Below are positions 1,460-43,048 of a stretch of 64,000 nt of DNA, piece by piece; position 1 is the stretch's first letter, and every line of letters begins with the position of its first letter. The notes beneath the pieces are model-generated. The model did not search any database. It was not told the DNA's origin and saw only the letters and a program-made list of their open reading frames with translations. The stretch lies in the sequence record NC_031928.1; one strand, 5' to 3'. The stretch is from Escherichia phage WG01. Made by a program: the position numbers and the translations under genes.

Positions 1460-3138
1460 TCCATCACCGTGAATCGTCCAACTTTCTTCATTTGAAGATG
1501 TTGGCCATAAGCTTGTGGGTCATGGTCTCGGTGAGAGATAATGAACACGTTCGTATCCTCAAGGCTATTCAAGATGGTTGCAATGGTCTTAACGCCTTCA
1601 GCGTCAGTAGCACTGTCAAATACCTCATCAAGAATTAACGTGCTGATATTAACACCTGATACCTTAGAAGCAATATCGCGCCATGTAAAAAGTAGTGCGA
1701 TATCAATACGTGCTTTCTCACCCTGTGAAAATGAAGCATAACTAAAGTCTTCACGTCCACGTGATTTAATCGTCTCATTGAACTCTTCGTCTAGTGTAAA
1801 GACGTAGTCCGCTTCCATAATCTTCAAATAAGAATTTATCTGCTTATTAAAGATAGGAATGTATTTCTTAATAATGGAACCTTTAATACCAGTATCCTTC
1901 AACATTTCTGTCAGAATTCCACGATGGTATTTTTCCATTACCAAGGACGATTTGGTAGAGACGATTTTATCAAGCTCTGCTTGAAGCGCGGCAATCTCTT
2001 CGGCATTACTTACGAACTCAGCAGCTGCTTGGTCGATTAATACTTTAACTTTTTTAGCTTTCTCTACGGCAGTAATGGCTTGTTGCTTATGAGTAGCTAT
2101 CTGAGATTTAATAGCCAGAGCTTTATTACGTTGTTCGGTTACTTGGTCCTTAATGAGCTTGAGTTCTTGGTACTGTTCGTTAATCTTATCCAAAGATTTT
2201 TGAAGCTCAAAGTTCTTATCCTTAATTTTAGTAAGGATATTTCCATGCTCTTCCAGTCCTTGCATACATGTAGGACAACTACCACCGGTTTCGTATAATT
2301 TCACGACCTTAGTAAAGGTTGCCATATCATTCTTGATTGCAAATCCTTTATTGCTCAGGTCACTCATAGAGTTGCTAGGGTCATCATCGACGATGACATT
2401 GAGTAATTCATCAGTCAGTTTTTCTATATTGCCCTTCGCAGTCCTGGCTTCTTTAACGAGCTCATCGTACATTGTTTGTAGACGTGCTGCGTTCTCACCT
2501 GATAATTTACGCTGACGTTCTTCGTTGTCATTATAAATTTTAATTTGCTGGATAATAGAATCCTGTTTAACGTCGATTACTTGGATTTGGCTATTAGTCT
2601 CACGAATCAAAGATTTGTTCAACTTGTCCATATCCGCTAATACAGAAACCTCTAAGAGGTCTTCCACAAGCTTTCGGCGCGCAGGGGTCGACAAACCCAT
2701 GAAAGGGGTATACCCTGCTGTACCAAGTACGACAATCTGTTTGAAACTGGTATATGACATTCCGATAAGCTGTTCAAATTCTGCTTGGAAGTCTTTACTG
2801 CTGGCAGATTCATCAAGACGTTCACCGCCACAAGAGATTTCAAAAATATTGGGTTTTTGCCCGCGCTTGATATAGTATTCTTTGCCATCATATTCCATCC
2901 ACAGTTCGACCAAAAGGTCTTTCTTATTACTTGAGTTAATCAACTGCCCTTTCTTAACATCACGAAAAGGCTTACCGAACAGAGCAAATGTAACGGCTTC
3001 AAGGAACGTAGATTTACCAGCGCCGTTTTTACCGGTGACTAAGGTCTTTTGGACCTTATCAAGTTGGATTGTAATAGGTTGCTGGCCTACCGACATAATA
3101 TTTTTATACGTTACTTTCTTTAACTTAAACGTTTTCAT
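1456..3138 (-). CDS. 46: recombination endonuclease subunit gp46 (SbcC/Rad50-like ATPase)
   Basis: 560 aa, same length as T4 gp46; Walker A GKNGAGKST; long coiled-coil middle; C-terminal signature region. Confidence 0.93.
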   Translation of the reverse strand: MKTFKLKKVTYKNIMSVGQQPITIQLDKVQKTLVTGKNGAGKSTFLEAVTFALFGKPFRDVKKGQLINSSNKKDLLVELWMEYDGKEYYIKRGQKPNIFEISCGGERLDESASSKDFQAEFEQLIGMSYTSFKQIVVLGTAGYTPFMGLSTPARRKLVEDLLEVSVLADMDKLNKSLIRETNSQIQVIDVKQDSIIQQIKIYNDNEERQRKLSGENAARLQTMYDELVKEARTAKGNIEKLTDELLNVIVDDDPSNSMSDLSNKGFAIKNDMATFTKVVKLYETGGSCPTCMQGLEEHGNILTKIKDKNFELQKSLDKINEQYQELKLIKDQVTEQRNKALAIKSQIATHKQQAITAVEKAKKVKVLIDQAAAEFVSNAEEIAALQAELDKIVSTKSSLVMEKYHRGILTEMLKDTGIKGSIIKKYIPIFNKQINSYLKIMEADYVFTLDEEFNETIKSRGREDFSYASFSQGEKARIDIALLFTWRDIASKVSGVNISTLILDEVFDSATDAEGVKTIATILNSLEDTNVFIISHRDHDPQAYGQHLQMKKVGRFTVME

Positions 3139-3359
3139 GTATTGTTCTCACGAATTGTTTGTTCAGCATATTCTAGCATTTCTTCGGAAGAAGCAAACAC
3201 GTCGTCAAGTTCCATGGCCCATGAAACACCTTCAGAATATTCAGAAGTGACATACATAGTTCCGGTATACCAAGAACCATCCACGTCCCATTCTACATTA
3301 CCGAACCAGCCATCGCCAATATGAAAATCATGTTTATACATTTTCATCATTATAAGCAT
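3135..3359 (-). CDS. hypothetical protein (74 aa)
   Basis: ATG start; T4 46.1 position. Confidence 0.4.
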   Translation of the reverse strand: MLIMMKMYKHDFHIGDGWFGNVEWDVDGSWYTGTMYVTSEYSEGVSWAMELDDVFASSEEMLEYAEQTIRENNT

Positions 3360-3597
3360 CCTTGATGCATGATTCAGCCATATGAATTAATGTTTCTGGA
3401 GTATCATCTACCATTACATTAAAGCTAAATTCCACAGCCCAATCAGTAGCAACATAAACTTTAATAAGCTCGTTGGTATCGCGAGTGCTCACGGCTTCAA
3501 ACCAGAACTTAATGATATTCGTTTGGTTATCGTCATCAATAACGATGCAGTCGTGTTCTAGTTCAAGGCCTGATTTTTTGAATTCATCTAAAGTCAT
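3334..3597 (-). CDS. hypothetical protein (87 aa)
   Basis: ATG start overlapping gp47 stop; T4 46.2 position. Confidence 0.4.
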   Translation of the reverse strand: MTLDEFKKSGLELEHDCIVIDDDNQTNIIKFWFEAVSTRDTNELIKVYVATDWAVEFSFNVMVDDTPETLIHMAESCIKDAYNDENV

Positions 3598-25059: not shown

Positions 25060-25317
25060 TTAACGTTCTTCGTGTTTAAAACCTTTCTTAGTAAACAGCT
25101 TAACAACATCTGCTACTTTACGAAGTTGATCTGCATCAGCAACCAGTTGCTTAACCACTTTCTCGTCAGTTTCTTTAGAGCTAAAAGCGTGCTCAAGTTC
25201 GTCATCATTAGGGTCGGCCATAGAAACTTCAGTGCCGGAAGGTTTAACGTTTACAATCATATTCCAACGTTTAGAAACTAAAGTGGATTCTGTAATAAAT
25301 TCTTGGTAAGTTTTCAT
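25060..25317 (-). CDS. internal-protein-like packaged protein (CTS-tagged, 85 aa)
   Basis: N-terminus MKTYQEFITE, the T4 capsid-targeting sequence ending in the prohead-protease motif I/L-x-E. Confidence 0.6.
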   Translation of the reverse strand: MKTYQEFITESTLVSKRWNMIVNVKPSGTEVSMADPNDDELEHAFSSKETDEKVVKQLVADADQLRKVADVVKLFTKKGFKHEER

Positions 25318-25325
25318 ATTAAGCC

Positions 25326-25685
25326 TTAAAGATGGTCTAGTGCCGGGTTATGAGGTTTTTCTGCTTTAGTAGTGTTTTTATGCCAATCTGATTTAGAAAC
25401 ACGGATGGCATCCGCGCCATAAGAACTCTTAAGGAGACCTTTTTTATTGTACACACTTATTGAAGTAAGAGAATCACCATTCCATGTAGCATGAATGAAG
25501 TTAGATTTAGATTTAAGTTCTTTAGCCAAGCTCTGGTTAGTGGCCATGGAAGCAAAGTCTTTACCTGTAACTTTAAAAACTTCAGATGGGTTCAGCCCTT
25601 CTTTGGCCTTAGCCAATTGTTCAGGAGACATAGCTTCGTTAATGCGCTGAGTAGATTCAGTAATAAATTGTTGGTAAGTTTTCAT
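25326..25685 (-). CDS. internal-protein-like packaged protein (CTS-tagged, 119 aa)
   Basis: N-terminus MKTYQQFITE. Confidence 0.6.
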   Translation of the reverse strand: MKTYQQFITESTQRINEAMSPEQLAKAKEGLNPSEVFKVTGKDFASMATNQSLAKELKSKSNFIHATWNGDSLTSISVYNKKGLLKSSYGADAIRVSKSDWHKNTTKAEKPHNPALDHL

Positions 25686-25727
25686 ATTATTCCTTAAGTT
25701 GATAGAAGTATTCTATCACGGATTTAA

Positions 25728-26144
25728 TTAAGCGTAAATAGCCTTGCCGTAATGTTTGTACCAGGTAGAGCGTTGTGCAATTTTTTCGTCCAAACGGGCC
25801 TGAGATATAGCAATAGAAGCTTCGTGTGGAGTATAGTCACCACGGAATTCCTGAGGAATGTCACTAATGTCCTGGACAGTAGTATCCTTGATATTAAAAC
25901 CACGTTTTAAACATTCGGCTATAAGCTCAATTTGTCGCTTACGTAAAAATTCAAGCTTATCGTAAAAGAATGTAACATGGCCTGTGCCAAGGATAAAAGT
26001 AGGACTGATTTTGAAATCACGGACACGTTTACCATTAGCAACATGCTTACGAACTGCACCGAAAACACGTGGTAATTCACGATATTCAGCCATTAAGTGT
26101 TGGTCAGCCAATTCAGATACTAAGGTAAGGTTGATACGAGTCAT
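25728..26144 (-). CDS. denV: endonuclease V (pyrimidine-dimer DNA glycosylase) DenV
   Basis: 138 aa; near-identical to T4 DenV as recalled ([34 protein letters not shown]...). Confidence 0.95.
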
Positions 26145-26159
26145 TTTTAATCTCCTGTA

Positions 26160-26200
26160 GTTGATAGGTCTATAGTATCATGACTACAGGAGATGTAAAC
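26160..26200 (-). promoter_or_regulatory. early promoter cassette
   Basis: GTTTACA -35, TACTATAGACC -10 region, dyad CCTGTAG/CTACAGG. Confidence 0.6.
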
Positions 26201-26224
26201 AACTTTTATCAAGTATAGGCTTTA

Positions 26225-26821
26225 TTAATTACCACGGGCAGCATTAGCAACGGCGTAAGCGTACTGAATATTAGCGTCTTTAAACGTACCTTTAGAGGTA
26301 TCTATTTCTGCCTTAAAGCCGCCTTTAGCCATAACATCGGCAAATTCTTTACGGAAAGTCATTGCATCAAGACCTTTCCATGCGGATTTATGCTTGGCAA
26401 ATTCAAGACCGGCGAAGTTGACCGCCTTAGCCAATTTATTATCAATAGTCCATTTACCTGCTTTAGGTACAAATACAGGACCTTTCTGTTTAGAGAACAG
26501 TTTTAAATTCCAGCGACGAAGGTCGCCGTCAGCTTTAACAAAAGCTGCGTCCAAGTTACTAGCAACAACATCTTGGATATGGGCAAATTTAAGTCCATCA
26601 GCTTCAATATTTAGGTCGTTACGCCAGCGAAGTCCTTCCCAGGCGAAAGCTTTAAAATCAGAAGCTTTTGTAGCCAAGTACCGTTCAATAGGAGCTGTTT
26701 TAGCGTCAAAACCGTTTCCTGGGTTGTCAACGCCGTTTCCTTTGTAAGTCCACTCATCTTTATTAATGCCTTGGACCTTTCCTACAGAAGCTTCGGCGAT
26801 AAATTCTTTATACGTTTTCAT
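26225..26821 (-). CDS. ipIII: internal protein III-like (CTS-tagged, 198 aa)
   Basis: N-terminus MKTYKEFIAE; length and position next to e match T4 IPIII. Confidence 0.7.
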   Translation of the reverse strand: MKTYKEFIAEASVGKVQGINKDEWTYKGNGVDNPGNGFDAKTAPIERYLATKASDFKAFAWEGLRWRNDLNIEADGLKFAHIQDVVASNLDAAFVKADGDLRRWNLKLFSKQKGPVFVPKAGKWTIDNKLAKAVNFAGLEFAKHKSAWKGLDAMTFRKEFADVMAKGGFKAEIDTSKGTFKDANIQYAYAVANAARGN

Positions 26822-26867
26822 ACGGGTTCCTTAAAGGAAAATATTTTAATTGGTCTGTTCAAGTAAC

Positions 26868-26903
26868 TGTAGATATACTATCACAATTCTAGGAGATGTA
26901 AAC
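26868..26903 (-). promoter_or_regulatory. early promoter cassette (short copy)
   Basis: GTTTACATCTCCTAG followed by TAGTAT. Confidence 0.45.
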
Positions 26904-27302
26904 TTATTTATAGGTCTTCATCCAATTCTTGAACAAAGCCGCGACGTCTTTCTCTTTAACGTTCAGTTTAATGTCCAACATTTTACCACCCGCTGCTCTG
27001 GTTTGGCGAATCTTAGCAGTACCGGTTTCGCCATTCCACTCAACATAATACTGTCCAGTGTTCATTGCAATACCATCACCGTAGTCTTCATTTTTAGAAG
27101 TGGTGAATGCTAGCTTCATAGTCTTAGATACACGAGCCTGCATGCCTGTCTGAAGGGCATTACGAACGCGAATAACCTGAGGAGTGGCCTGGGTCAAGTT
27201 CTCATTCAGTTCTTCAGTGAACTCTTCAGATTCAAACATCGCCAAAAGTTCTTTAGATGCAGGAATTACATTCTCTGCGATAAATTCATTATAAGTTTTC
27301 AT
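26904..27302 (-). CDS. internal-protein-like packaged protein (CTS-tagged, 132 aa)
   Basis: N-terminus [10 protein letters not shown]; T4 ipII position. Confidence 0.6.
26905..26912 (-). promoter_or_regulatory. candidate late promoter TATAAATA
   Basis: exact TATAAATA on the minus strand upstream of ipIII, overlapping the upstream stop codon. Confidence 0.4.
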
Positions 27303-35004: not shown

Positions 35005-35268
35005 TTATTTCATATTATTGAAATAATTTTCTGCATCAAAATCATTACCATGGTAAACTTTGGTAGACGATTTGGCGTAACCTTCAGCTGAGAACATATT
35101 AATCACAACTTTAATTGTATACCACTGTCCATCTTCATTACCCATTACTGCATAGGTTTCATACACCGGGTGTTCAGGACCGATAACCTTAATATCGTTA
35201 ACTGTGGCACCAAATTCTTCCGGAACACATTTCATAAAGAAATTAAACACTTCACCATAATTATCCAT
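35005..35268 (-). CDS. hypothetical protein (87 aa)
   Basis: ORF track start is GTG in the promoter; ATG at 35268 with AAGGAG RBS. Confidence 0.4.
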   Translation of the reverse strand: MDNYGEVFNFFMKCVPEEFGATVNDIKVIGPEHPVYETYAVMGNEDGQWYTIKVVINMFSAEGYAKSSTKVYHGNDFDAENYFNNMK

Positions 35269-35291
35269 TTTACTCTCCTTCACTCTGTTGT

Positions 35292-35332: not shown

Positions 35333-35355
35333 ATCTTTTTTAAACCTTTTAGAAA

Positions 35356-35384
35356 CAAAAAAGGCCCAACCTTTCGGAAGGGCC
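35356..35384 (-). terminator. rho-independent terminator
   Basis: GGCCC-TTCCGAAAGG-TTGGGC hairpin followed by T7 on the minus strand. Confidence 0.55.
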
Positions 35385-35389
35385 TAGAA

Positions 35390-35944
35390 TCAGTTCTTGT
35401 AGAACCGGAATGGGTTTATGTGGAAGGCTAACATAGCCTTAGGGATTTTACGAGACAAAAGACTCTTAAGTTTCCAACCACAGTATACACGAAGGTAAAA
35501 GGTAATCCCACCTACTTTAAGATACGGAACTGAAGCAAAGACTCCCCATGCTTCGTCATTCCACATCCATAACCATCCATGATGAGCTTTATCAGGAGAA
35601 CCGGATTCAACGTCAGGATTACCACGATAATGGAATTCTGAGCTACAATCGCGTCCAAGTTTATGGTAAGCAAAGTTATAAGCTTTATTTCGCCATAGCC
35701 AAGCTACCCTCTGGAGATAAACACCGCCCGGCATTTTCCTGATTTTAGCCCAACGTTTAATATGACCTTTGTCACCGTCAATTGGATTATCGTATGTCAT
35801 CATCCAATCAAAGCCATAAGGCAATTTACCGGTCTTTTTATTATGGAAAGGAACTACAAAAGGCGCAAGGATAACGGCCAGAACCATAGAGATGAAATCC
35901 AGTGGAACCAACAGAACCCAACTCAAATATTTTAAAAGTTTCAT
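35390..35944 (-). CDS. membrane protein (184 aa)
   Basis: ORF track start is TTG; ATG at 35944; N-terminal TM helices; Trp-rich. Confidence 0.45.
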   Translation of the reverse strand: MKLLKYLSWVLLVPLDFISMVLAVILAPFVVPFHNKKTGKLPYGFDWMMTYDNPIDGDKGHIKRWAKIRKMPGGVYLQRVAWLWRNKAYNFAYHKLGRDCSSEFHYRGNPDVESGSPDKAHHGWLWMWNDEAWGVFASVPYLKVGGITFYLRVYCGWKLKSLLSRKIPKAMLAFHINPFRFYKN

Positions 35945-35988
35945 ATATTTCTCTAAGTTAACCAAAAAAGCCCCAGACGGGGCTTTCG

Positions 35989-36453
35989 TTATTTGATTTG
36001 TTTAGCAGACCAGATACGGTCTTTGATGATTTTCTGAATATCTTCAACATACTCTAAGTCGTGAGCATGTGGATTATCTTTGAAGCTATGTGCTCGTGCC
36101 AGTTTCTGGCCTTCTGTTTTGATTACTAAAAGCTCTTTAAGAATTGCTTCATACTTAGAAATAATTCCTTTGGCGATATTTTTTTCTTGAGCGGCTTTAG
36201 GGTCCGCTTTTGACGCAGGTGCTTTACCTGTAGCTTTCTGGAACAATTCACCTGATGCAGCTAGGCTTTTAAAAACTCGGCTAACAGTATTGGCATTAGT
36301 AAAACCTTCGGCTTTAAAATCTTTAATAAAACGGAAACGTTCTTCATCAGAGGCGTCTTTGTAAGAATATTTACCTGCTTGAATTGCTGCAATCGCAGCG
36401 GCTTTTACATCTGAACTAGATTGTTCAGTCAAAAATTCATTGTAAGTTTTCAT
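35989..36453 (-). CDS. internal-protein-like packaged protein (CTS-tagged, 154 aa)
   Basis: N-terminus [10 protein letters not shown]; late promoter ~27 nt upstream. Confidence 0.6.
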   Translation of the reverse strand: MKTYNEFLTEQSSSDVKAAAIAAIQAGKYSYKDASDEERFRFIKDFKAEGFTNANTVSRVFKSLAASGELFQKATGKAPASKADPKAAQEKNIAKGIISKYEAILKELLVIKTEGQKLARAHSFKDNPHAHDLEYVEDIQKIIKDRIWSAKQIK

Positions 36454-36479
36454 ATTATTTCCTAAGTTAGTTTACTACA

Positions 36480-36487
36480 TATTTATA
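36480..36487 (-). promoter_or_regulatory. late promoter TATAAATA
   Basis: exact TATAAATA on the minus strand ~27 nt upstream of the ATG at 36453. Confidence 0.55.
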
Positions 36488-36488
36488 C

Positions 36489-36518
36489 AAAAAAAGCCCA
36501 ACCTTTCGGAAGGGCCTT
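36489..36518 (-). terminator. rho-independent terminator ending the tRNA/stable-RNA transcript
   Basis: same hairpin as 35356..35384 (GNRA loop) followed by T7. Confidence 0.55.
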
Positions 36519-36559: not shown

Positions 36560-36898
36560 GTGTTTGTACGAAACGCCGGGATTCGAACCCGGTTATTAAG
36601 TAGTTGACGCCACTCAATATTTTTAAAAGGCCATATCTCGACCATATCCGAACGTTCCGTCAAAAACGCTACTCGGCTTACGGCAAAGATATTTCCTCGA
36701 ATCGATAATTCGGTGCGCCGTTTCTGCTGTGATGTAAGGGGACGTTAACAGATCGTAAAGATTTGTTAATGCCAGTCCTTACTCAGGGAACATCAGTCCG
36801 ACGACTTACCGGTAGCGACCCGGTTTCTTGTTTGTTGCGCCGGTGAATGCTGGTAATCAGTCTTCATACGACGGCTTGACTATATAATAGTCTTCATT
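36560..36898 (-). ncRNA. candidate stable RNA(s) downstream of the tRNAs
   Basis: ~340 bp with no ORF of 60 aa or more; minus-strand T-arm-like hairpin CCGGG-TTCGAAT-CCCGG at ~36575-36595; no full cloverleaf found by eye. Confidence 0.25.
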
Positions 36899-36973
36899 TG
36901 GTATCCCGCCCTGGGATCGAACCAGGACCGCAAACTTAGAAGGATCGTATGCTATCCATTACACCAGCGGGAC
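36899..36973 (-). tRNA. tRNA-Arg (anticodon TCT)
   Basis: minus strand cloverleaf with anticodon loop CTTCTAA, T-loop GGTTCGATCC and encoded CCA. Confidence 0.8.
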
Positions 36974-36978
36974 GTAGT

Positions 36979-37055
36979 TGGTGACCCAGACCAGATTTGA
37001 ACTGGTAACCTTTCCCTTATGAGGGGACTGCTGCTAACCATTGAGCTACAGGGCC
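36979..37055 (-). tRNA. tRNA with CAT anticodon (Met or lysidine-type Ile)
   Basis: minus strand GGCCCTGTAGCTCAATGGTTAGCAGCAGTCCCCTCATAAGGGAAAGG...GTTCAAATC...CCA. Confidence 0.7.
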
Positions 37056-38453: not shown

Positions 38454-38762
38454 CTATTTTATTCCGCGTGATGCAATCGTATTCTGCCGTTTAACGCCAG
38501 TTTGTTTAAAGTTATGATTGTCGAGTTGATCGGTACGAGCAACTCCGAATGATGATTTAATCTTAGCTTTAGATCCTTTAGTTATAGAAATAAACATCTC
38601 GGGAGCCCCTTTCTTAAAGTCCGAAGCAATTACTTCAACACCGTTCTTAGCAAGTGACCTCAGAATTGCTTCCACATACTCATCATCAAGACCTGCTTGA
38701 GTATGAATAACGAATGTCTTTGGTGCAGCCGCTTCATTGATAAATTCTTGGTATGATTTCAT
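38454..38762 (-). CDS. internal-protein-like packaged protein (CTS-tagged, 102 aa)
   Basis: N-terminus MKSYQEFINE. Confidence 0.6.
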   Translation of the reverse strand: MKSYQEFINEAAAPKTFVIHTQAGLDDEYVEAILRSLAKNGVEVIASDFKKGAPEMFISITKGSKAKIKSSFGVARTDQLDNHNFKQTGVKRQNTIASRGIK

Positions 38763-38784
38763 TTTATTTTCCTAATTAATTTTG

Positions 38785-38822
38785 ATGAGATAATAGTACC
38801 ACAACCCTATTTAAAAGTAAAC
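38785..38822 (-). promoter_or_regulatory. early promoter cassette
   Basis: GTTTAC -35 and TACTAT -10-like. Confidence 0.45.
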
Positions 38823-39095
38823 TCATTTTAAATAAATTGCATATTTTTTATAACCCGCTGTCTCATGACGAAGACCCTTATCATTAGCAAAACGCTCAAT
38901 GTTGTTAATTTGATTCTGGTCAAGTTCAGAGATGTCAAACACGAAAAAGTTACGTTTGTTGCCTAAAGTTACGTGATTAGTCAAATCGATGTTATAGAGA
39001 TGATTTATATTATCAATCATGGTCTTAACAGATTTGTTAATTTTTACTTCTTCATTAAGAATAGATTCAGCGATAAATTCTTGGTATGATTTCAT
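38823..39095 (-). CDS. internal-protein-like packaged protein (CTS-tagged, 90 aa)
   Basis: N-terminus MKSYQEFIAE. Confidence 0.6.
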   Translation of the reverse strand: MKSYQEFIAESILNEEVKINKSVKTMIDNINHLYNIDLTNHVTLGNKRNFFVFDISELDQNQINNIERFANDKGLRHETAGYKKYAIYLK

Positions 39096-39096
39096 T

Positions 39097-39318
39097 TTAT
39101 TCTACGCCTGCGGCTTTCAAAAGTTTTTTAAGATTGGCTATGCCGCCAGCAGAAAACGTGACCTTGCCACCTTTTTCATTGATAGAGCCAGTCAATTTAG
39201 CAAGCTTATCACTAGGGACTTTTTTAAAATCAGCCAGTATGCCATCAAAGGTTTTTGTAACAACCGGCAGTTGGTCATGTTTTTTGGCTTCTGTAATAAA
39301 TTCTTGATAAGCTTTCAT
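39097..39318 (-). CDS. internal-protein-like packaged protein (CTS-tagged, 73 aa)
   Basis: N-terminus MKAYQEFITE. Confidence 0.6.
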   Translation of the reverse strand: MKAYQEFITEAKKHDQLPVVTKTFDGILADFKKVPSDKLAKLTGSINEKGGKVTFSAGGIANLKKLLKAAGVE

Positions 39319-39345
39319 TTTTGATTTCCGTTTGGTTAGTTTGTT

Positions 39346-39385
39346 TTGATAGGTCTATAGTATCATGCCTATAGACCTTGTAAAC
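39346..39385 (-). promoter_or_regulatory. early promoter cassette
   Basis: GTTTACA -35; dyad GGTCTATAG/CTATAGACC. Confidence 0.55.
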
Positions 39386-39396
39386 AACTTTTTAAA

Positions 39397-40295
<899 letters not shown>

Positions 40296-43003: not shown

Positions 43004-43048
43004 AGTGCCTCCTTATAAATATTAATATTATTTATACTCGGAGGCACT
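43003..43048. promoter_or_regulatory. divergent late-promoter region for genes 4 and 53
   Basis: TATAAATA on the plus strand (43014..43021) and on the minus strand (43029..43036), bracketed by a perfect 9-bp inverted repeat AGTGCCTCC/GGAGGCACT that contains both RBSs. Confidence 0.65.

Follow-up and report, generated by a model that had tools for sequence, protein, structure and literature searches.

A tagged candidate internal-protein gene in a terminator-flanked cassette between rnaC and e.8 of a T4-like phage

Introduction

The internal proteins (Ips) of bacteriophage T4 are directed by a capsid targeting sequence, MKTYQEFIAE; they are cleaved once beside it, and proteins fused to it stay in the capsid (PMC8442874). 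The cut is made by the prohead protease gp21 after the Glu of I/L-x-E motifs (PMC12991175). A 2025 study found a distinct GmrSD type IV restriction enzyme to be disabled by each of T4 Ip1, Ip2 and Ip3, and described the Ip genes in two genomic hotspots (PMC12373910). A second kind of variable element in these phages is the promoter-early stem-loop (PeSL) cassette (Arbiol et al. 2010, Comeau et al. 2014; PMC2839356, PMC4122927). Here we describe a gene that resembles the Ip genes in what it encodes and the PeSL cassettes in how it is flanked. It is an open reading frame (ORF) of 154 aa at 35989..36453, on the minus strand of a 64,000-nt stretch of Escherichia phage WG01 (NC_031928.1) that we call the window. 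We consider it likely that this is a T4-type internal (injected) protein gene carried by a small mobile expression cassette, at a third Ip locus between rnaC and e.8. We infer its late transcription, packaging and injection from the sequence.

The window comes from a Dhakavirus of the Tevenvirinae: it shares 99.9% identity with Escherichia phage vB_EcoM-E33 of that genus, and QL01, JS10 and MX01 are near relatives.

Results

A conserved ORF with a capsid targeting-like leader

The 154-aa ORF is a real, conserved gene of T4-like phages. It is the orthologue of RB32ORF132c and belongs to phrog_2280, a family listed as being of 'unknown function'. Members were found in 510 phage records, with every record listed annotated as hypothetical. 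Two large protein searches restricted the family to T4-like phages, and it is small, having 9 representatives at 50% identity among 1.84 billion proteins. A search for related loci returned 8, and a literature search found no paper on RB32ORF132c.

An original prediction from the DNA letters had read the ORF as a 154-aa gene on the minus strand with a tag-like N-terminus, and this reading was borne out. Codons 1-10 (36424..36453, minus strand) encode a leader like the capsid targeting sequence that ends in an L-x-E prohead-protease motif. The leader is alike to T4 MKTYQEFIAE at 7/10 positions, with the differences Q5N, I8L and A9T, and its predicted gp21 site is L8-T9-E10. Cleavage at Glu10 would give a mature form of 144 aa and 15.9 kDa with an isoelectric point (pI) of 9.5. 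The mature T4 Ip1-3 have pI values of 9.02-9.65, a range that includes the 9.50 predicted for the window protein.

Homologues with 36-47% identity retain a leader of the form M-x-x-[YF]-x-E-F-[LV]. In distant members of the family it reads MLKFNEFLAE, MLEYSEFLKE, MKFKEFLIE or MISFNEFV...ITE. Within the window, the ORF at 39397..39606 bears a leader identical to that of the 154-aa ORF, encoded by tag codons that differ at 5 synonymous and 0 non-synonymous positions. This pattern argues that the tag was kept by selection on the peptide and not by recent copying of the DNA. From these sequence comparisons, we conclude that the tag peptide is under selection.

Nine ORFs in the window, none of them on the plus strand, have a leader of the form M-K-[STA]-Y-x-[EQ]-F-[IL]-x-E; four are at 25060-27302 (ipII/ipIII-type), four at 38454-39606 (ipI-type), and the ninth is the 154-aa ORF. 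Half of the other eight (4/8) match PHROG families annotated as internal head or internal virion protein. The proposal that the 154-aa ORF is separate from the two internal-protein loci therefore holds, with those loci at the two clusters just given and the ORF between rnaC and e.8. The predicted mature protein of the ORF at 39397..39606 is acidic (pI 4.1), which is unusual for an Ip.

An AlphaFold model of the 154-aa protein built from a 10-sequence alignment (predicted local distance difference test, pLDDT, 78) contains only helices, arranged in two domains: an N-domain of three helices (residues 13-67) and, after a low-confidence linker rich in Lys, Pro and Ala (68-84), a long helical hairpin (85-151).

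A late promoter straight behind a terminator

An exact match to the T4-type late promoter octamer, TATAAATA, is found at 36480..36487 on the minus strand, abutting the U-run of an upstream terminator. It reads from 36487 to 36480 and stands 26 nt before the ATG at 36453, where the original prediction had placed an upstream late promoter. The octamer fits the form of T4 late promoters, an 8-bp box that stands about one helical turn before the start and is not accompanied by a -35 element. Transcription is predicted to start near 36474. A Shine-Dalgarno sequence, AGGAAA, can be read from the sequence at 36458..36463 (minus strand), 4 nt before the ATG. A pattern scan gave no sigma-70-type promoter between the upstream terminator and the ATG.

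The upstream region was compared with those of ten other loci from Dhakavirus, Mosigvirus and Tequatrovirus. The alignment comprised 10 sequences, the window and nine loci, and one more locus (L006) was added for the promoter count. A late promoter lies straight behind the terminator in all of the orthologous loci (11/11), as TATAAATA in eight and as the A(-13) variant AATAAATA in three. In a list of 50 T4 late promoters 32 are perfect and nine are A(-13), the commonest single deviation (PMC2988020). Across the 10 aligned upstream regions no change occurs in the stem-loop core, the U-run, ATAAATA or AGGAAA, while the spacer of 26-39 nt between promoter and start codon has both indels and substitutions. 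Dedicated late transcription of the ORF, as predicted from the sequence, is well supported by this conservation.

The count of exact TATAAATA sites in the window, 7 where 7.6 are expected, is not above chance. However, each of the sites (7/7) precedes a same-strand ORF by 21-89 nt. One of the seven ORFs is Ip3-like, identified through its N-terminal match to T4 IpIII. The others include what we take, from their N-termini, to be homologues of lysozyme e, gp4, gp53 and gp13. Two exact TATAAATA boxes stand back-to-back on opposite strands at 43014-43036, where they precede the divergent gp4 and gp53 homologues by 25-27 nt; T4 presumably has the same divergent late-promoter arrangement at gp4/gp53.

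Three terminators and a flanking repeat

There are exactly two copies of the 21-mer GCCCAACCTTTCGGAAGGGCC in the window (35364-35384 and 36496-36516), compared with 0 expected from 100 shuffles. The repeat extends to 31 nt with 97% identity (35355-35385 and 36487-36517), and no further copy was found in the 64-kb window with up to 3 mismatches allowed. Folded as RNA of the minus strand, each copy gives a G+C-rich stem that is interrupted by a 2x2 U.U internal loop and capped by a GAAA tetraloop, and a run of U6-7 follows. The fold energy is -15.1 kcal/mol for the upstream copy (z = -2.4) and -16.0 kcal/mol for the downstream copy (z = -3.0). The upstream copy (36487..36517, minus strand), with its U7 tail, is the left border of the cassette and the downstream copy (35355..35385, minus strand) the right border. 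The core of the upstream stem-loop, CCGAAAGGTTGGG, is invariant in the 10 aligned sequences, and the same stem-loop is found 3' of rnaC in T4, T2, T6, RB18 and RB69. The upstream copy would end the tRNA / rnaD / rnaC transcription unit.

A third hairpin, at 35966..35985 on the minus strand, comes directly after the stop codon of the ORF and would be its own intrinsic terminator (GCCCC-GUCU-GGGGC followed by U6; -15.4 kcal/mol, z = -3.4). It is unrelated in sequence to the repeat. A pattern scan lists the same inverted repeat at 35966-35985, but on the plus strand. All of the hairpins (3/3) have the G+C-rich stem and U-run of an intrinsic terminator, with energies of -15.1 to -16.0 kcal/mol and U6-7.

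The ORF had been described as lying alone between two copies of one terminator. Both copies are present, but they bracket two genes, because a gene for a DUF7338 protein sits between them. The ORF does have a terminator of its own; it is the hairpin at 35966-35985, not the repeat. The DUF7338 gene (35390..35944, minus strand; PF24027, E = 5e-63; phrog_2143) encodes 184 aa, with the start at 35944 as in E33. Its ATG is about 20 nt past the U-run of the ORF terminator, and those ~20 nt hold no recognisable promoter. The gene is therefore probably expressed by read-through alone, which suggests that the hairpin at 35966-35985 is leaky. For the same reason the word 'insulated', which had been applied to the cassette, is too strong in this phage: the late promoter and the discrete unit stand, but DUF7338 likely needs transcripts that pass the terminator. 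In IME341 (L007) the DUF7338 gene carries an internal deletion, and many relatives lack the gene. By eye, the N-terminus of its product looks hydrophobic.

The site between rnaC and e.8 in relatives

The unit behaves as a discrete cassette, and T2, T4 and T6 hold the same site empty. In these three phages rnaC is followed by a single stem-loop, GGTATCTA(A/G)GCC... and e.8, with no gene in between; the sequence 3' of rnaC is ...GCCCCGACCGAAAGGTTGGGGCTTTTTGGTATCTA(A/G)GCC..., then the e.8 early promoter. The octamer is missing from the junction. The site is occupied in RB18, where the stem-loop is followed by GGTATAAATA (which includes TATAAATA), the ORF, a second stem-loop and then the GGTATCTAGGCC flank that T4 also has. 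The direct repeats flanking the RB18 unit are 36 nt long with one mismatch.

In RB69 another tagged gene occupies the same site (MKTYAEFLTEAAKLPSE...). It is annotated as RB69ORF149c/148c (L014, 7429-7991, minus strand), apparently one tagged gene split by a frameshift. An intact gene of this type is found in locus L012 (3100-3663) and codes for 187 aa; its family is present in 165 phage records, and all those listed are hypothetical. L012 encodes both tagged genes in tandem with a copy of the stem-loop before each, for three copies in all. Loci L008 and L013 share the downstream flank of L012, and therefore probably carry both tagged genes in tandem as well.

The RB69ORF149c/148c family shares with the window gene the insertion site, the upstream stem-loop, a leader (MKTYAEFLTE), a late promoter (the A(-13) variant) and the length class (187 aa when intact). 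It is absent from the window, and a direct comparison with the window protein gave no similarity at E <= 1e-3. The two cassette families are nonetheless distant paralogues, linked solely via Tegunavirus gp154 and the protein P0010, which align with 29% identity over 177 aa (E = 1e-13). In Yersinia phage fHe-Yen9-01 (L004, a Tegunavirus), gp154 and gp153 are encoded at 2422-3537 as tandem paralogues of the two families. Their leaders are MLQYNEFLKE and MLEYSEFLKE, and their ORFs are 9 nt apart, with neither the stem-loop repeat nor TATAAATA. The Tegunavirus pair may represent an older, fixed arrangement.

Together these sequences point to the interval between rnaC and e.8 as a third Ip locus, one of variable content. 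T2, T4 and T6 are all empty at this site, which may be why it was overlooked.

Comparison with Ips and PeSL cassettes

The predicted protein was compared with the Ips and with known families. Like T4 Ip1-3 and T-even Ip4-Ip13, it has a leader of about 10 residues with a terminal I/L-x-E gp21 site. As with T4-type Ips, it is small and basic in its predicted mature form, its gene is patchily present among close relatives, and the gene runs in the same direction as its neighbors. It differs in location, as the ORF lies between rnaC and e.8, outside the ipI (next to 57B) and ipII/ipIII (next to e) loci. On every Ip criterion that can be tested at the sequence level, the predicted protein agrees with the Ips, parting from them on location alone, and that is a matter of place and not of mechanism. 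Also unlike T4-type Ips, the protein has a predicted two-domain helical architecture and a small family of its own. We rejected it as an Ip3 homologue, the similarity to Ip3 being confined to the tag. A weak similarity to T4 Ip2 does run past the tag, with 34% identity in a 44-aa stretch (pairwise E = 6e-5).

Searches for a function gave little. Pfam and PADLOC had no match for the protein, and NCBIfam and a PDB sequence search gave weak, below-threshold matches only. PHROGs returned the unknown-function family and a weak match confined to the leader. Foldseek with a single-sequence model found nothing in the PDB at E <= 0.001, and in BFVD it found only the protein's own family. Matches from the fold searches were generic helical hairpins.

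The flanks were compared with the PeSL cassettes of RB49/phi1 and PST/T4 (PMC2839356, PMC4122927). Both systems have direct stem-loop/terminator repeats around a variable ORF, an empty site marked by one copy of the element, and a promoter and terminator within the cassette. Excision as mini-circles, through recombination of the elements at either end, is a further mark of PeSLs (PMC2839356). The repeats here are 36 nt in RB18 and 31 nt in the window, with three copies in L012 and a single copy in T4, T2 and T6. In contrast to PeSLs, the promoter is a gp55-type late TATAAATA and not a strong sigma-70-like early promoter. The extent of conservation differs too, about 100 bp in PeSLs and about 31-36 nt here (the stem-loop, the U-run and the first promoter bases). 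Given the late-type promoter in place of the sigma-70-like early one, we rejected the cassette as a PeSL.

Genome setting

Gene order on the minus strand is T4-like. It begins with gp2, gp3, gp1, 57A, 57B, the ipI-type cluster and homologues of trna.4-.2, and continues with tRNA-Met (36979-37055), tRNA-Arg (36899-36973), rnaD and rnaC homologues, the 154-aa ORF, the DUF7338 gene and e.8. Two minus-strand segments, about 36712-36829 and 36567-36705, were placed by eye as the homologues of T4 stable RNAs, rnaD and rnaC respectively, against the printed T4 sequence of the annotated rnaC/rnaD region. An Rfam scan of the upstream region had the two tRNAs as its sole matches, with no family for the rnaC and rnaD homologues. 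Neither homologue is annotated in the nearest GenBank record. The gap from the 3' end of tRNA-Arg (36899) to the start of rnaD is about 65 nt longer than in T4.

On the other side, the e.8 homologue was read from the sequence at 35005..35283. A GTTTAC..TACTAT motif, 3' of the downstream terminator copy and upstream of the e.8 homologue, resembles the T4 early promoter ahead of e.8 and is a putative promoter.

One protein from a public sequencing-run assembly (P0009, 94 aa) joins a trna.3-like N-terminal part to the final 32 residues of the 154-aa ORF family. It implies either a deletion variant without the tRNAs, rnaD, rnaC and most of the cassette, or a mis-assembly.

Discussion

Nothing we found contradicts the original proposal of a late-expressed cassette for a packaged protein, and the comparison with relatives supports it. 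We favor the reading of the 154-aa ORF as a T4-type Ip gene in a mobile cassette. Under this reading, transcripts of the tRNAs, rnaD and rnaC would stop at the upstream stem-loop, as its structure suggests. Late in infection, RNA polymerase with gp55 would initiate at the TATAAATA that abuts the terminator U-run, a sequence conserved among the orthologous loci, and would make a short-leader mRNA with the AGGAAA ribosome-binding site. By analogy with the T4 tag, the 10-residue leader would target the protein to the scaffolding core of the prohead. There gp21 would cut after Glu10 of L-T-E to leave the basic 144-aa, 15.9-kDa helical protein in the head, and the mature protein would be injected along with the DNA. 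Once inside, it might neutralize a host defense at injection, as T4 Ip1-3 do with GmrSD. Homologous recombination between the direct terminator repeats could excise or insert the cassette, and this would explain why the rnaC-e.8 site carries zero, one or two tagged genes, depending on the T-even phage.

Several observations weigh against this reading. Our literature searches gave no report of a late transcript, virion protein, cleavage or injection for the gene, and the sequence and fold searches gave no anti-defense clue. The residue after the predicted cut is Gln, and it is Ala in T4 Ip2 and Ip3; in close homologues, Ala, Ser or Gly aligns with Gln11. Most of the window's other tagged genes have T4 early-type promoters (GTTTAC...TAcTAT) or none that can be recognized, and among them the Ip3-like gene alone is preceded by TATAAATA, at -91. 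Expression restricted to the late phase is therefore not general for Ip genes. In Tegunavirus, the 130 nt before the homologue fHe-Yen9-01 gp153 contain no late promoter and no terminator, and the gp153 leader (MLEYSEFLKE) is more divergent. Lastly, the protein has another L-x-E motif within a predicted helix, LKE at residues 105-107, and it could be fragmented if this motif were accessible.

That second motif bears on the alternative that survives best, that the protein is a component of the prohead core, brought by its leader to the scaffold and then degraded or expelled on maturation, and so not an injected effector. Most T4 scaffold proteins are degraded after assembly (PMC8442874). The protein would offer the protease LKE 105-107 and the exposed, low-confidence linker rich in Lys, Pro and Ala (68-84), and its long helical hairpin is like those of coiled-coil assembly proteins, if only generically. 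However, the model places LKE within a confidently predicted helix, and the size and basic pI are those of Ips that are retained. The gene is also dispensable and polymorphic, being absent from T2, T4 and T6, for which an accessory role is the better fit. We regard a core component as unlikely.

A still poorer fit is an unpackaged, cytoplasmic late protein whose tag is a non-functional leftover of recombination among ip genes. The ip genes do share about 30 nt of similar 5' sequence, a possible substrate for recombination; the leader departs from the T4 tag (Q5N, I8L, A9T), and versions in Tegunavirus and other distant relatives depart further. A relic would not be expected to keep its peptide in the face of synonymous divergence and at 36-47% protein identity, and the identical leader on the ORF at 39397..39606 belongs to the ipI-locus cluster. 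We find this improbable.

Least probable of all is that the TATAAATA before the ORF is fortuitous, with expression mainly by read-through from the tRNA/stable-RNA unit and no dedicated late transcription: the chance-level count, the two U.U mismatches in the upstream terminator stem, which may leak, and the reliance of DUF7338 itself on read-through are all compatible with it, yet the position of the sites carries the signal, as all seven in the window are properly placed before same-strand ORFs, ATAAATA is invariant in 10 sequences from three genera beside a diverging spacer, and the empty T2, T4 and T6 sites have no octamer at the same junction.

If the 154-aa ORF encodes an injected Ip, then by analogy with T4 Ip1-3 its most likely role would be anti-restriction at injection. 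What is new is an additional member and an additional locus; the kind, tagged internal proteins, is already well known. A wider view, which we hold only tentatively, is that the rnaC-e.8 site is an unrecognized third T-even Ip hotspot, made of terminator and late-promoter cassettes that would be the late counterpart of PeSLs. The injected, two-domain helical proteins of its two families, which occur in about 500 and about 165 sequenced phages, might be new inhibitors of defenses, for example GmrSD variants or other sensors of modified DNA.

Should the site be such a hotspot, it would add two more tagged, late-expressed families, both common in therapeutic phages and in phage collections (Tequatrovirus, Mosigvirus, Dhakavirus). 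The site between rnaC and e.8 would also be a safe insertion point for engineered packaged cargo. The occupied and empty forms of the locus offer a natural example of terminator repeats moving single-gene expression units between phage genomes. With a third hotspot, the list of candidate injected anti-defense proteins of these phages would be longer, and its members could be tested against natural E. coli isolates.

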